A stretch of DNA of 64,000 nt from a phage, in assembly GCA_025832235.1 (NCBI GenBank), contig GCA_025832235.1_3649.1. The stretch is one strand, 5' to 3'. Made by a program: the position numbers and the translations under genes. Positions 20,359 through 51,286 of this stretch are shown here, in pieces (within the stretch, counting starts at the first letter, position 1; the number at the start of each line of letters is the position of its first letter). The notes under the pieces were generated by a model, which had not been told where the DNA came from, did no database searches, and was given only the letters and a program-made list of their open reading frames with translations.

Positions 20359-20386
20359 AGTTTACTTGAATTTTGCAGCGTGTCAA
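20359..20386 (-). promoter_or_regulatory. sigma70-like promoter (TTGACA-N16-TAAACT) abutting an A18 tract
   Basis: Plus-strand TGTCAA 20381-20386; homopolymer immediately upstream on the minus strand. Confidence 0.5.
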
Positions 20387-20389
20387 TAA

Positions 20390-20407
20390 TTTTTTTTTTT
20401 TTTTTTT
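20390..20407. repeat. 18-nt homopolymer (T on plus, A on minus strand)
   Basis: Uninterrupted T run; overlaps stop codon of 20406..20804. Confidence 0.7.
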
Positions 20408-44989: not shown

Positions 44990-46174
44990 TTAAGCTTTAG
45001 CTAAAATGGCGCTAAACTCTTCACCAAACTCTTTTACAATCTTCATCAGGTTTGGGTACGCTTTGATCAGTTGAGCAACGATCTTGTCACGCCCTTTACC
45101 GATAAGCAAGGCATTTCCTAAGGCGTTAGGTTTCATCATCGCCATAAAGACTGAGAATACAAAATCTCGGTTCTCGTCCTTGAAATTTTCCCAAAGGAAA
45201 TCGAGGAAGTTTGCCACACAGCTAACAAGATCTTCGTCAGAGATACTTGCATTTTCCATCATATTACGAATAGCGATACAACCTTCAGATCCAAGAATCC
45301 ACAAGATGTCTGGCTGCTTAGGCCCTACGTATTCTTTGCAACCCCCTGCCATAATCCGACCGATTTCCGGTAAATTGCGTTTCTTGGTGTGGTAGGTCCA
45401 GATCTCTACCGCTGCAGTGTGACCAATAGCACCTTGCAGAAGAACACGGGCCATAGCGTCAGAAATAATACCGCTGTCAAAATCGTGCAGGATATCAGAT
45501 GCAGCAACCCAAGATCGCGGTGTGGCAAAAGATGGGCAATTAATTTCAGCCATAGCCTCATAATTATCAATAGCTGATGGAACTCTTTTCAGATACCCAA
45601 TTACAGAGGAGTGAACCCCGTTGAGGAATGCGTAGTCCTCAATAAACACCTCTGCATTGCTTGTAACCTCTACAATGATAAAACGGTTAGCCAGAGGGGC
45701 TTCGAGCGCCGAAAGAACCGCACCATCTGTAGAACGGTTACCCGCAGCCACAAAAACAGAACCCTTAGGGAATGCATAGGTGCCGCACTTGTGGTCAAGC
45801 ATAATTTGCATTGCAACCTTTTGCAGGTAGTTATCTGCATGAGTGAGCTCATCCAGAAAGATAATTCCGCTCCAGTCAGGATCCGCAGGCCAAAATTCTG
45901 GAATTGCAAACACTGTACGTGTAGTTCCATCCGCTTCTACAGGGATAGGTAGCCCAGATAAGTCGGCAGGATCTTTATCTGACAGTCGCACGTCAACAAG
46001 GTTGTCATCTCGCTCACCGAACATATTATCAGCGATCTGCTTCATCACCTGGCTTTTACCCACACCCATTGGTCCCAAAATTAGGACAGATCGGCTATGA
46101 CGTTGGGCAAACTGAATAATAGCTGGCAACTCACGGACAGTGATTTGACCACTTTCGAATACGTTTCTTGACAT
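44990..46174 (-). CDS. AAA+ ATPase (MoxR/AAA_5-like)
   Basis: Walker A LILGPMGVGKSQ; Walker B IIFLDELTHA; 394 aa. Confidence 0.6.
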   Translation of the reverse strand: MSRNVFESGQITVRELPAIIQFAQRHSRSVLILGPMGVGKSQVMKQIADNMFGERDDNLVDVRLSDKDPADLSGLPIPVEADGTTRTVFAIPEFWPADPDWSGIIFLDELTHADNYLQKVAMQIMLDHKCGTYAFPKGSVFVAAGNRSTDGAVLSALEAPLANRFIIVEVTSNAEVFIEDYAFLNGVHSSVIGYLKRVPSAIDNYEAMAEINCPSFATPRSWVAASDILHDFDSGIISDAMARVLLQGAIGHTAAVEIWTYHTKKRNLPEIGRIMAGGCKEYVGPKQPDILWILGSEGCIAIRNMMENASISDEDLVSCVANFLDFLWENFKDENRDFVFSVFMAMMKPNALGNALLIGKGRDKIVAQLIKAYPNLMKIVKEFGEEFSAILAKA

Positions 46175-47505: not shown

Positions 47506-47776
47506 TTGTCATTTTACATTCTTGAAATTTTAACACAAGACGGTGATTGTGTCTAGTGTCTAAAAAGATTTTTTCAACCATCAGGCACACGGTATAACCG
47601 TCCATCTTGTTAACAACAAAATCTCCAGGGTGAGGGAGGATGTCTCCCGGGTTGGGGAAACATAGTCCGCTCAAGAAGGCATCGTCGGTGGTAGACTTAA
47701 TAGATTTCCACACGCTATCTGCCTGAACATTCTCACCCACATAGTATACGCTACCACATGTCTTCATCATAGTCAA
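47498..47776 (-). CDS. hypothetical protein
   Basis: ORF track. Confidence 0.55.
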   Translation of the reverse strand: MTMMKTCGSVYYVGENVQADSVWKSIKSTTDDAFLSGLCFPNPGDILPHPGDFVVNKMDGYTVCLMVEKIFLDTRHNHRLVLKFQECKMTIA

Positions 47777-48672
47777 ATCTCCGCGTAAATTAAACTGGAA
47801 TCAGTATACTTCTTTAATGGGTAAATATCCTGTCCATAGATGCAGTCATTAAACACCTCATCTACCCAAAGGCTACACTTATATCCCATCATTTCTAAAA
47901 CGCCCATCTCTTCTTCGGTGAACTTATCACCGCTCTTGCAAGATGTCAATACCTCATTCTGTACTCTTGCTACCTCGAAGCGGTTATTGGCAATATCACT
48001 ATTGGCAATCAAATACTCACCTAAAGGGTGTGCAGCATTAAAGATGCACAGTGGACGGTTGACGTAATAGTCTCCCGGTGTATAAAAATTGTTGAGATCC
48101 TTCACCAGAACATTCTTATCAGTCACTTCATTTATAACATCATGCATATCACACATCTTTATATGTTTGAGGATTCCATCCCCCATCACAAAATAAAAAC
48201 TTGCTGAGACACTCTCGGCATAGATCTTACTAGATCCGTTGTAGTTGTATTTTACGCGAATGCTTACAGGGGTTTTGCCTGTCGCGTTAGCCATCATCCA
48301 AAGGAACGGAAGTTCAAACCTCTCCTCTGAGGAAACAAAAGGTGAAGTTGCCAGAGATCGGAAACCTCCAGAAAAGTTGAAAGTTACAGAGCCGCTCCGG
48401 CGATATGATACCGCATATTCTACTTTTATATCGACATAGCCGTTGGAGTAAGTGTGGCCTCCATTATCCAGATATGTCCACTTATCAGATCCGGATACCA
48501 GCCTACGCTCAATAACCTTCATTACTATAGGAATTAGCGGGTTGGTACAAACCGATTTTGAAGTAGCTTTATCATCCAAAGCCTCGTAAATTGCAGAAAG
48601 GATATCACCTGCTGAGAGATTGGTTGTGATATCTTGTTTCCACCGAGTGCTAAAGCTGTTAAGATTTGCCAT
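47773..48672 (-). CDS. hypothetical protein (first gene of the leftward operon)
   Basis: ORF track 47773..48714; ATG 48672 follows CAGGAG and lies downstream of the predicted leftward promoter. Confidence 0.55.
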   Translation of the reverse strand: MANLNSFSTRWKQDITTNLSAGDILSAIYEALDDKATSKSVCTNPLIPIVMKVIERRLVSGSDKWTYLDNGGHTYSNGYVDIKVEYAVSYRRSGSVTFNFSGGFRSLATSPFVSSEERFELPFLWMMANATGKTPVSIRVKYNYNGSSKIYAESVSASFYFVMGDGILKHIKMCDMHDVINEVTDKNVLVKDLNNFYTPGDYYVNRPLCIFNAAHPLGEYLIANSDIANNRFEVARVQNEVLTSCKSGDKFTEEEMGVLEMMGYKCSLWVDEVFNDCIYGQDIYPLKKYTDSSLIYAEI

Positions 48673-48712
48673 GATTAAGTGCTCCTGTGTTCGTTTTCTT
48701 TCGAATGGGTGC

Positions 48713-48741
48713 ACTATATCGTAGATTTATAGTAAAGTCAA
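48713..48741 (-). promoter_or_regulatory. leftward sigma70-like promoter (TTGACT-N17-TATAGT)
   Basis: Plus-strand AGTCAA 48736-48741 and ACTATA 48713-48718; -35 lies in one arm of palindrome GTCAAC-N11-GTTGAC. Confidence 0.5.
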
Positions 48742-48754
48742 CACGTTTTTGAGG

Positions 48755-48783
48755 TTGACATCTGTCGAGGCACTTGATAAGAT
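48755..48783 (+). promoter_or_regulatory. rightward sigma70-like promoter (TTGACA-N17-TAAGAT)
   Basis: TTGACA 48755-48760 in the other palindrome arm; TAAGAT 48778-48783. Confidence 0.5.
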
Positions 48784-48814
48784 TTCTTCACCTACAGAGC
48801 ACGAGAGACAACTC

Positions 48815-49795
48815 ATGAATCTTGAAAAATATTATACACCAGAAGAGTTAGAGCGCCTGCTCAAAAAATACAGACGCAAACAAAATAATGCACGGAAACG
48901 AGATATAGAGTTCAACCTGTCATGGGAAGAATACCTCCTATTTGGTAAAAAACTTTTAGGAGAGGGGGTATGCGACTATACCCTTATACCTTTCGACATG
49001 CACACAGATGAAAACGGGCTGGGGAATCCTTTCTACCCATCTCTGGAGCGGATAGATGATGAAGGTCCTTACGCAATTGACAATTGTTGTGTGGTAGGGT
49101 TGAGGTGCAACGCTCTGAAAGACTGTCTGGTAGATAAAAAGACTGCAATATTGATAAAAGACAAAACTGATCGAAAAATTGTCCAGCAGATGATGCTTCA
49201 CCTGAGCGAAGAGCGTATGGAGAAATTGAAAGGTGATTATACTTTTGAAGATTTCATCTTGCAATACGGGACAGAAGAAGATAAACTAGCACTTTTTGAC
49301 GAAGAGGAAGAAGATATGTCACCAATGCAGGACTTTAAAAATTTCATGGCTGATCGTGCAGCCAACAAACACATTTCAGACATCGTAAACGAAACTGTGA
49401 CAGAAGAAATTGGAGAACAGAACTCTGAAGAGGAAAAAGAGCCTCAGGAGGTCGAAGAGGAGATTGCAGAAGAGGTTCCTGCACTGCCTGACGATGTTGA
49501 GATTGCCAAAGCTTACACTTTCTATTGCCAGACGTTCTACGATGCAGGTATGAAAGTTGATCTGTCATTCAGCCAGTTTAAGAGCACATACATTCGAAAA
49601 TGTTGTGCTTTAACTGGTGAACGTCTCGGTGCCGGACTTAAACCCCTATTAGTTACCGACTGGAACAAAGGTTTCACCAAAGGTAACTTCATGGTAGTAT
49701 CTCCAATCATGGAGAAGGCTATGACAGACCTTATGAAGACCACTCGCATGACAATGACCGAGTTGGCTGGTATTTTCAAGCACGTTAAACAATGA
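48815..49795 (+). CDS. hypothetical protein with HNH-like motif and acidic linker
   Basis: ORF track 48749..49795; ATG 48815 is downstream of promoter; PSLERIDDEGPYAIDNCCVVGLRCNALK shares motif with 25892..26470. Confidence 0.45.
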   Translation: MNLEKYYTPEELERLLKKYRRKQNNARKRDIEFNLSWEEYLLFGKKLLGEGVCDYTLIPFDMHTDENGLGNPFYPSLERIDDEGPYAIDNCCVVGLRCNALKDCLVDKKTAILIKDKTDRKIVQQMMLHLSEERMEKLKGDYTFEDFILQYGTEEDKLALFDEEEEDMSPMQDFKNFMADRAANKHISDIVNETVTEEIGEQNSEEEKEPQEVEEEIAEEVPALPDDVEIAKAYTFYCQTFYDAGMKVDLSFSQFKSTYIRKCCALTGERLGAGLKPLLVTDWNKGFTKGNFMVVSPIMEKAMTDLMKTTRMTMTELAGIFKHVKQ

Positions 49796-49804
49796 CAGGG
49801 GCCA

Positions 49805-51286
49805 ATGGCCCCTTCTGGAGTTTTAATGGATAGCAGAAGTTCAGAAATCATTACCGCACAAAAAGATGATGCCTTGCGAATGCTGCAGGCCGCTCGCATG
49901 TACCTTCTTGAAAAGCTGCCGTTTTATGGCACACTGTTGTCAGGGTTGCAGTTCGTAGAAAACCACACATGGTGCTCCACCATGGCAACAGACCATAAAC
50001 GCATCTACTACAGCCCTGAGTTCATTATGGGGTTGGCAGATGAGCGTAAAACCATTCTTAAAGCATCTCTGACTGACAAGCAGTTTGAGATGGCTGAGGT
50101 TTTCTATTCCCCAAAATCTGTGAAAGAGGTGGCCTTTCTTCTGTCACATGAGGTGGGGCATATTATCTGTGATCATCTGGTCCGTGGTAAAAGCTTTGAG
50201 CCGGAACTGTTCAATATTGCTTGTGATCACGTTATCAACACAGGTCTTGTGGTTGACTTTAGCAAGCCTCCTTGTGTTTTCTTCCCGAAGGGGAAAAGCA
50301 CTGAGTTCGTAAAAGGTAAGCCTTTTGGCTTCTTAGCTAATTGCTACTGCGACATGAGGTTTCATGGATGGATTGCTGAGAACGTCTATGCAGTTCTTGA
50401 TAAACAAAGAGATCAGAATGGCGGTAAAAGTAAGAACGGTAAAGGTGAGAACTCCCAAGGAGATAAACGACAAACCGATGATCACATGAGCGGGAACGGT
50501 GGCACTAGTGATGATCTTGGAAAGGCTATGGGGTATGATCAGCCGCAACCAGTAATCAGTCAATCTGACAAAGATCAGGCCATGCAGGACTCTGGTGACA
50601 TGTTGGAAGCAGCAATGCAAGCTTCAGGAGGTCGTTGCCCCGAGGCGGTGCGCGAGTTTGTCAAAAACAGAGGCAAGCCTGTAATCAATTATATAGATAT
50701 TATTAAGCAACGTATGTTATCTAAAAGAAAGGCTGAGTTAACCTACAGAAAACCTGGTCGCCGATCTGGGTCTTTGACCACCACAATGCGAAAAGTTGGA
50801 GCTATAAACAAGAATCAACACGTTATTGTTCCTGGTCGTAATCCGGAAAACACTATAGATATTGTAGTGGCTTTAGACGTTTCTGGGTCGATCTCACAAA
50901 GAACTTTAAAGAAAATGTTCAATGAGATCACCGGGTTGTGCAATTTGTATAAAGAGTTTAAGGTTACTATGTTCTGTTGGTCAACGGAGGTTGGAGAGGT
51001 TAAAGTATACACTCGCGGTAACATCGATGAGATGATTAACTATGAGGTCCACTCAACATGGGGCACAACAGCCGCCTGCGTGTTCGAGTATCTGGATGCT
51101 AACATACCGAATGCAAAAGATGTCATCGTCCTTACCGACCTCTACTTTGAGCATAACTTTGAACAAAAGGCTGTTGACAACAAGTGGAAAAAGTACGATA
51201 CTTTATGGGTTCTCACCGAAGGGTATAATAAAAATTATATCCCGAGCTTTGGGAAAACTGTGGAATTAATCGAGTACGCTAAGTAA
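49805..51286 (+). CDS. VWA-domain protein with N-terminal zinc-metallopeptidase-like HExxH motif
   Basis: SHEVGHIICDH (HExxH); VWA MIDAS-like IVVALDVSGSIS; 493 aa. Confidence 0.6.
   Translation: MAPSGVLMDSRSSEIITAQKDDALRMLQAARMYLLEKLPFYGTLLSGLQFVENHTWCSTMATDHKRIYYSPEFIMGLADERKTILKASLTDKQFEMAEVFYSPKSVKEVAFLLSHEVGHIICDHLVRGKSFEPELFNIACDHVINTGLVVDFSKPPCVFFPKGKSTEFVKGKPFGFLANCYCDMRFHGWIAENVYAVLDKQRDQNGGKSKNGKGENSQGDKRQTDDHMSGNGGTSDDLGKAMGYDQPQPVISQSDKDQAMQDSGDMLEAAMQASGGRCPEAVREFVKNRGKPVINYIDIIKQRMLSKRKAELTYRKPGRRSGSLTTTMRKVGAINKNQHVIVPGRNPENTIDIVVALDVSGSISQRTLKKMFNEITGLCNLYKEFKVTMFCWSTEVGEVKVYTRGNIDEMINYEVHSTWGTTAACVFEYLDANIPNAKDVIVLTDLYFEHNFEQKAVDNKWKKYDTLWVLTEGYNKNYIPSFGKTVELIEYAK

Follow-up and report, generated by a model that had tools for sequence, protein, structure and literature searches.

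In the Escherichia coli bioA/bioBFCD operon (BirA) and in tetR/tetA of Tn10, one symmetric site lies between or over two divergent promoters, and single operators governing divergent promoters therefore exist; both operators have a long dyad that is distinct from the promoter hexamers, and the cognate repressor is known. In phage lambda, the starts of PR and PRM are ~82 bp apart, and the pair has separate 17-bp operators (OR1-3) with a symmetry of their own and an adjoining repressor gene. Both the lambda pair and ilvY/ilvC, which has a LysR-type regulator, consist of two full sigma70 promoters that lie on opposite strands without overlap, their upstream regions side by side. Such back-to-back divergent promoters form a recognised class (reviewed by Beck & Warren 1988, cited in PMC4469952), and their coupling by supercoiling is established, for example for ilvY/ilvC (PMC4469952; PMC5175336). 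The bidirectional promoters described by Warman, Grainger et al. (Nat Microbiol 2021; NAR 2026, PMC12825309) are of a different kind: they share one -10 element, and 18 bp is the usual distance between their starts (10 and 23 bp also occur).

The closest described system is the same locus in rV5, the type phage of the genus Vequintavirus. Table S4 of Kropinski et al. (2013, Virol J 10:76; PMC3606486) lists P010 (6636..6681, minus strand, TTGACT...TATAGT) and P011 (6685..6713, plus strand, TTGACA...TACGAT). The rV5 promoters were predicted by a consensus search and MEME, without transcript mapping, and the palindrome was not remarked on (PMC3606486), although the rV5 sequence has the identical GTCAAC-N11-GTTGAC between genes 10 and 11. 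P11 is annotated among the GenBank features of rV5 (NC_011041), and the record of phage Gotham (MT682716) has both promoters as features, mapping exactly onto 48713-48741 and 48755-48783 of the DNA described here. Literature searches for Vequintavirus transcriptomes, mapped 5' ends or expression data found none. An RNA-seq lead (bioRxiv 10.64898/2026.01.13.699316) was discarded, as phage Bas33 is treated there as T5-like and the data are thus irrelevant to rV5-like phages; the Figure 2 legend of this preprint labels Bas33 '(Vequintavirinae)', while it is T5-like elsewhere in the same text.

The window, which is the whole stretch of 64 kb that was analysed, is by its sequence from an rV5-like Escherichia myovirus of the genus Vequintavirus; a 2.2-kb stretch around the site matches 118 phage records with 84-98% identity, nearly all of them Escherichia Vequintavirus. 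Sixteen GenBank records (MG0656xx, among them MG065672, which bears an UNVERIFIED mark) are named as Campylobacter jejuni phages, yet in this region they share 96-100% identity with rV5-like phages of E. coli; they probably represent mislabelled or contaminant genomes. The site (48713-48783) falls within a 142-bp non-coding gap (48673-48814), which is the sole divergent junction of the window. On one side lies the gp010 homologue (leftward, ATG 48672), on the other the Srd-like gp011 homologue (rightward, ATG 48815), and annotated relatives have rV5 gene 10 (leftward) and gene 11 (rightward) at the same position. Mechanically called open reading frames that start at GTG 48714 and TTG 48749 are too long and span the promoters; the real starts are the two ATGs. 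The features of the locus are:

47773..48672, minus strand: gp010 homologue, first leftward gene, 299 aa, with AGGAG 8 nt before the ATG
48706, minus strand: predicted leftward start, an A, 7 nt past the -10
48718..48713, minus strand: leftward -10 hexamer TATAGT, equivalent to rV5 P010
48719..48735, minus strand: leftward spacer, 17 nt
48741..48736, minus strand: leftward -35 hexamer TTGACT, equivalent to rV5 P010
48737..48759, no strand: perfect inverted repeat of 6 pairs, GTCAAC (48737-48742) and GTTGAC (48754-48759), separated by N11
48746..48750, no strand: A5/T5 tract at the dyad centre, candidate proximal UP-like element, at -44 to -40 of both promoters
48755-48760, plus strand: rightward -35 hexamer TTGACA, equivalent to rV5 P011
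48775..48783, plus strand: rightward extended -10, TG-A-TAAGAT (TG 48775-48776, hexamer 48778-48783)
48790, plus strand: predicted rightward start, an A, 7 nt past the -10
48815..49795, plus strand: gp011 homologue, first rightward gene, 326 aa, Srd-like / HNH-endonuclease-VII-like by PHROGs

A preliminary description of this DNA had proposed a divergent promoter pair, TTGACT-N17-TATAGT leftward and TTGACA-N17-TAAGAT rightward, together with the palindrome GTCAAC-N11-GTTGAC at 48737-48759. All these elements are present at exactly these coordinates, and the arms of the palindrome, which is perfect, contain the TTGAC of both -35 boxes. Each promoter matches the sigma70 consensus at 10 of 12 positions, has the A2 and T6 of the -10 hexamer and a 17-nt spacing, is oriented towards its gene and lies in non-coding DNA. 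The predicted leaders measure 34 nt to ATG 48672 (with the discriminator GCACCC) and 25 nt to ATG 48815, and the predicted starts (48706 and 48790) are ~84 bp apart, close to the distance between the starts of lambda PR and PRM. The -35 boxes face away from each other at a distance of 13 nt, with the -10 boxes outermost and 60 bp apart: the core elements of the two promoters do not overlap and their upstream regions abut. The site thus belongs to the ordinary back-to-back class of divergent promoters, like ilvY/ilvC and lambda PR/PRM. With ilvY/ilvC it shares a potential for coupling by supercoiling (PMC4469952), but it has no apparent regulator. A bidirectional promoter of the Warman/Grainger type also ties divergent transcription to the symmetry of promoter elements; a shared -10 is excluded here by the separate -10 boxes (48713-48718 and 48778-48783), and the A/T tract is the only element that the two promoters could share.

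Judged by hexamers, N17 layout and position, the pair is almost certainly the one already predicted as the early host-polymerase promoters P010 and P011 of rV5. The window differs from rV5 by a few substitutions, including changes in the spacers, and its rightward -10 is TAAGAT where that of rV5 is TACGAT. The promoter pair is therefore already known: it was predicted in 2013 and is annotated in GenBank.

The gp010 homologue belongs to phrog_12338 (function unknown) and matched no Pfam family; its public name 'alpha 1-3 fucosyltransferase' has neither Pfam nor PHROG support. For the gp011 homologue, Pfam gave no match, and PHROGs matches were to HNH endonuclease, 'decoy of host sigma70' and 'Srd anti-sigma factor'. 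The next rightward gene, the gp012 homologue (49805-51286, plus strand), has the Pfam domains DUF2201_N and VWA-like; naming is inconsistent in RefSeq, where NC_011041 and NC_019517 give 'HNH endonuclease' to both the gp011 and the gp012 homologues. This DUF2201 metallopeptidase/VWA-like protein and a MoxR-type AAA+ ATPase (44990-46174, minus strand) are encoded on opposite arms of the promoter pair. MoxR-type ATPases and VWA-type proteins are usually partners, and co-expression from both promoters would follow. Pfam gives no DNA-binding domain for either flanking gene, and no annotated DNA-binding gene lies beside the site in the Vequintavirus records compared. An Rfam scan of 48500-49000 (E <= 1) found nothing, and there is no terminator-like site at 48713-48783.

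We consider it very probable that the site consists of two separate back-to-back host sigma70 promoters at the one divergent junction of the window, each with its own -35, 17-nt spacer and -10. The leftward promoter (P010) would serve a unit of gp010, the MoxR ATPase, a cell-wall hydrolase and rIIA/rIIB, and the rightward promoter (P011), with its extended -10, a unit that comprises the Srd-like gp011, then the VWA/metallopeptidase protein and a series of small genes. Both would fire early with unmodified host polymerase; the exact starts and any role of the A/T tract are likewise predictions. This reading of the pair as divergent promoters, which was also that of the preliminary description, is supported by position, by enrichment over chance and by the pattern of conservation, and it matches the published rV5 predictions and the features of the Gotham record.

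Promoter-like sequences are enriched in the window. Matches to at least 10 of the 12 consensus positions number 53, compared to 18.1 +/- 4.4 in 100 dinucleotide shuffles (~3-fold), and at the density seen in the shuffles, chance would place a properly oriented divergent pair in this single gap with a probability of ~2e-4. The matches track gene orientation: plus-strand matches extend to about 11.3 kb, minus-strand ones occupy 12.9 to 48.7 kb, and from 48.8 kb onwards the plus strand takes over again, which agrees with the four transcription units that have been proposed for rV5. One strong promoter-like site elsewhere in the window (TTGACA at 20386..20381, minus strand) has a run of 18 A (20390-20407, minus strand) 3 nt (TTA) upstream of its -35, where the equivalent rV5 promoter P194 has only ATAAAAATCA; either the upstream A-tract has expanded here, or the run is an artefact of homopolymer assembly.

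For conservation, we aligned the window with 13 GenBank phages (spanning 84-100% identity) and two IMG/VR contigs (n=16); these relatives are close, mostly 90-100% identical at the junction, which limits the depth of conservation that can be seen. Variable columns are absent from both -35 hexamers (0/12) and restricted to the third base in both -10 hexamers (2/12, with A2 and T6 kept), but they make up 14 of 17 columns in the leftward spacer and 11 of 17 in the rightward one. Across all four hexamers, 2 of 24 columns vary, versus 25 of 34 in the two spacers (Fisher p = 7e-7, n=16); the hexamers also differ from the remainder of the gap (Fisher p = 9e-4, n=16). Spacer length is constant for both promoters in all 16 sequences. 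The two -10 variants are TACAGT for the leftward promoter in phage Aya and TACGAT for the rightward promoter in rV5, and the TG of the rightward extended -10 shows no variation in the 16 sequences. Fixed contact bases and fixed spacing combined with free spacer sequence are the pattern expected from selection on sigma70 promoters.

A further block, 48703-48715 (GAATGGGTGCACT), is invariant in the 16 sequences and more conserved than the adjoining leader. It includes the palindrome GTGCAC and corresponds to the GC-rich discriminator GCACCC plus the leftward start region; it is a matter of speculation whether such a discriminator may confer ppGpp/DksA sensitivity on the leftward promoter. Pattern scans with the leftward invariant block in IMG/VR and a metagenome collection returned mostly chance matches and only three further true homologues (L041, L043 and L050), with identical architecture. 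Among the resulting 19 sequences, the sole indel of the 211-bp region is found in the contig IMGVR_UViG_3300045988_173923 (L004/L021), which has T6 for T5 at the equivalent of 48746-48750 and thus N12 between the arms of the palindrome; this could be real variation or a homopolymer assembly error.

By tblastn, gp010 is confined to the 118 Vequintavirus records, and a related-locus search with gp010 gave just two loci; other genera were therefore reached via the VWA protein. Seunavirus 4MG and Mydovirus VIK251 keep the rightward promoter as GTTGACA-N17-GATAAT before the Srd-like gene (4MG: L006 2160-2205; VIK251: L007 2005-2050), and the promoter preceding this gene is thus conserved across genera. 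The leftward promoter is not clearly conserved beyond the genus: in both phages the best leftward -35 candidate, AATCAA (plus strand) at 3 bp from TTGACA, belongs to a weak match of 8/12 that was found by eye. In a Certrevirus relative, there is no divergent junction at the equivalent place. The promoter of the Srd-like gene of 4MG is preceded, at about -55 to -43, by AAAAATTTT-G-AAA, which we take to resemble the full UP-element consensus.

A further possibility is a coupling of the two promoters that needs no regulator, by a shared UP-like tract for the alpha CTDs and/or by negative supercoils that would arise behind each transcribing polymerase and stimulate the partner promoter, as in ilvY/ilvC. 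This refines the reading as two host promoters and is no strict rival to it; we regard it as tentative and, on balance, somewhat unlikely. Between the hexamers lie 13 nt, CACG-TTTTT-GAGG (4 nt, T5, 4 nt), which places the tract at -44 to -40 of both promoters; no base of the tract (48746-48750) varies in the 16 sequences, while positions 48745, 48751 and 48753 do. Judged from known footprints, the two polymerases would be expected to overlap in their upstream portions (about -55 to -36), and this favours coupling. The non-template strand of the leftward promoter reads AAAAA-CGTG-TTGACT; at the corresponding place the rightward promoter shows TTTTT. The proximal UP subsite is said to have been defined by Estrem et al. 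in 1999, with a consensus of AAAAAARNR at -46 to -38: the leftward AAAAA plus CGTG comes close to it, with the register shifted by 1-2 nt, whereas on the rightward side the strand is reversed, unlike the consensus, and this speaks against a shared element. For the leftward promoter the tract most likely provides an alpha-subunit contact, and it may do so for the rightward one as well; in the latter case the upstream DNA would be shared. In support of such a role, A-tracts at that position are typical of the promoters of this phage: among promoter matches in the window, the base most often found 4-10 nt before the -35, at -45 to -39, is A, and 23 of 48 matches have an A-tract there, compared to 14% in the background. 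The same pattern is visible in Table S4 for rV5 (PMC3606486). However, relatives as close as these make the invariance a weak argument, and the T6 variant indicates some tolerance.

We think it improbable that the tract is, more specifically, a shared upstream element that couples the promoters through competition for alpha contacts or through joint shut-off by a phage-induced polymerase change, or, in a weaker version, that some protein reads the G-TTGAC dyad. If the tract did couple the promoters, both operons would be switched together without a palindrome-binding protein; the polymerase changes meant are a T4 Alt/Mod-style modification of alpha or an anti-sigma factor that blocks -35 recognition. 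For a late joint shut-off, we speculate that a global change of the host polymerase would be more economical than a site-specific repressor, a preference which derives from the Srd-like nature of the first rightward gene and from the published late-promoter motif, which has no -35 box (PMC3606486).

The preliminary description had suggested that a single dimeric regulator bound to the palindrome could control both operons jointly. Under this reading, GTCAAC-N11-GTTGAC would be an operator at which one phage or host dimer occludes or recruits polymerase at both -35 boxes, and the data make this highly improbable. The repeat is indeed perfect and unique: with gaps of 5-20 nt, GTCAAC/GTTGAC occurs once in 64 kb, where 0.12 occurrences are expected. 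However, five of the six arm pairs are the TTGAC pentamers of the opposed -35 boxes, and as two opposite-facing TTGAC automatically produce a 5-bp inverted repeat, the palindrome is not independent evidence. The invariance of the ten core positions (n=16), which could be counted in favour of an operator, is fully explained by sigma70 region 4 contacts.

This leaves the sixth pair, the G just 5' of each box. In the window, 20 of 36 promoter matches have a G directly before TTGAC (56%), versus 44 of 156 other TTGAC sites (28%), and 'G-TTGAC' is likewise frequent in the rV5 promoter table (PMC3606486). The sixth pair is also the sole arm position that varies: of the 16 sequences, three (L005, ECP26 and Aya) have T at 48742, and one (Aya) has A at 48754. 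Symmetry is thus broken in L005 and ECP26 and preserved in Aya by a double change (GTCAAT...ATTGAC). The change on both sides in Aya would suit an operator, but it is one event, in the genome that diverges most, and the two other sequences changed on one side only.

Symmetry does not extend in either direction, as the flanks of the repeat are non-complementary (A/A outside, A/G inside), and there is no dyad distinct from or beyond the hexamers. A search of the window for further N11 copies with up to two mismatches found four sites (2.6 +/- 1.6 expected), a chance result, and a looser search of the window for TCAA...TTGAC also remained at chance level. Folding the palindrome as single-stranded DNA, for a hairpin or cruciform, gave an unremarkable -4 kcal/mol (z = -1.5). 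The centres of the arms are 17 bp apart, which corresponds to ~223 degrees round the helix and is a poor fit to a simple dimer on one face of the DNA; to our knowledge, arms and spacing do not fit the sites of CRP, FNR, LexA or Fis or the T-N11-A box of LysR.

The spacing of the arms has no net indel among the 40 listed of the 118 GenBank records, a point for the operator. Against it stand the N12 of the IMG/VR contig, the absence of the palindrome from 4MG and VIK251, which nevertheless keep the rightward promoter, and the other divergent junction of rV5, between genes 81 and 82, where the -35 boxes are 3 bp apart (TTTCAA-GTG-TTGACA). As the spacing at these junctions (81/82, 4MG and VIK251) differs from that in the window, what recurs is an arrangement of back-to-back -35 boxes and not a single conserved operator. 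Thus, neither non-promoter positions (48742 and 48754) nor half-site spacing are conserved, and there are neither extra copies beyond chance nor an adjacent gene with a DNA-binding annotation or Pfam domain. The differences to known operators point the same way: the bio and tet operators are longer than, and distinct from, the hexamers, and lambda OR1-3 have their own symmetry, whereas the window dyad consists of the -35 boxes only, has a variable non-promoter position and does not retain its spacing in the sister genera. On the sequence evidence, the palindrome is a by-product of two opposed 'G+TTGAC' -35 boxes, and the regulator proposed for it is not supported.

The rV5 81/82 junction has a feature of its own. 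At ~66730-66744 of NC_011041 (L019 431-445), the -35 of the published leftward promoter P081 lies 3 bp from an opposed perfect TTGACA. With TGg-CAGGAT after 17 nt, this second box may form a rightward extended -10 promoter of gene 82; bidirectional promoters were reported as not found at this junction (PMC3606486).

Least probable of all is that one or both promoters are chance look-alikes, with the true starts elsewhere (for example from read-through of internal promoters or from a phage-specific promoter type): matches of 10/12 do arise randomly (~18 per 128 kb of shuffled sequence), but both of these lie in the sole non-coding gap of the divergent junction, each facing its gene with the start codon 25-34 nt away, with a strong contrast in conservation between hexamers and spacers, and as the genes diverge here, there is no upstream read-through into either of them.

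With two separate host promoters as the preferred reading, the locus carries a lesson for similar cases: opposed -35 boxes always give an inverted repeat, and calling an operator needs symmetry or conservation beyond the hexamers. Knowledge of the site may be of use in the engineering of therapeutic or biocontrol rV5-like phages and in the design of reporter insertions, and it adds little beyond annotation. For the biology of rV5-like phages, the site would mark the origin of both early transcription units, as was already proposed in 2013.
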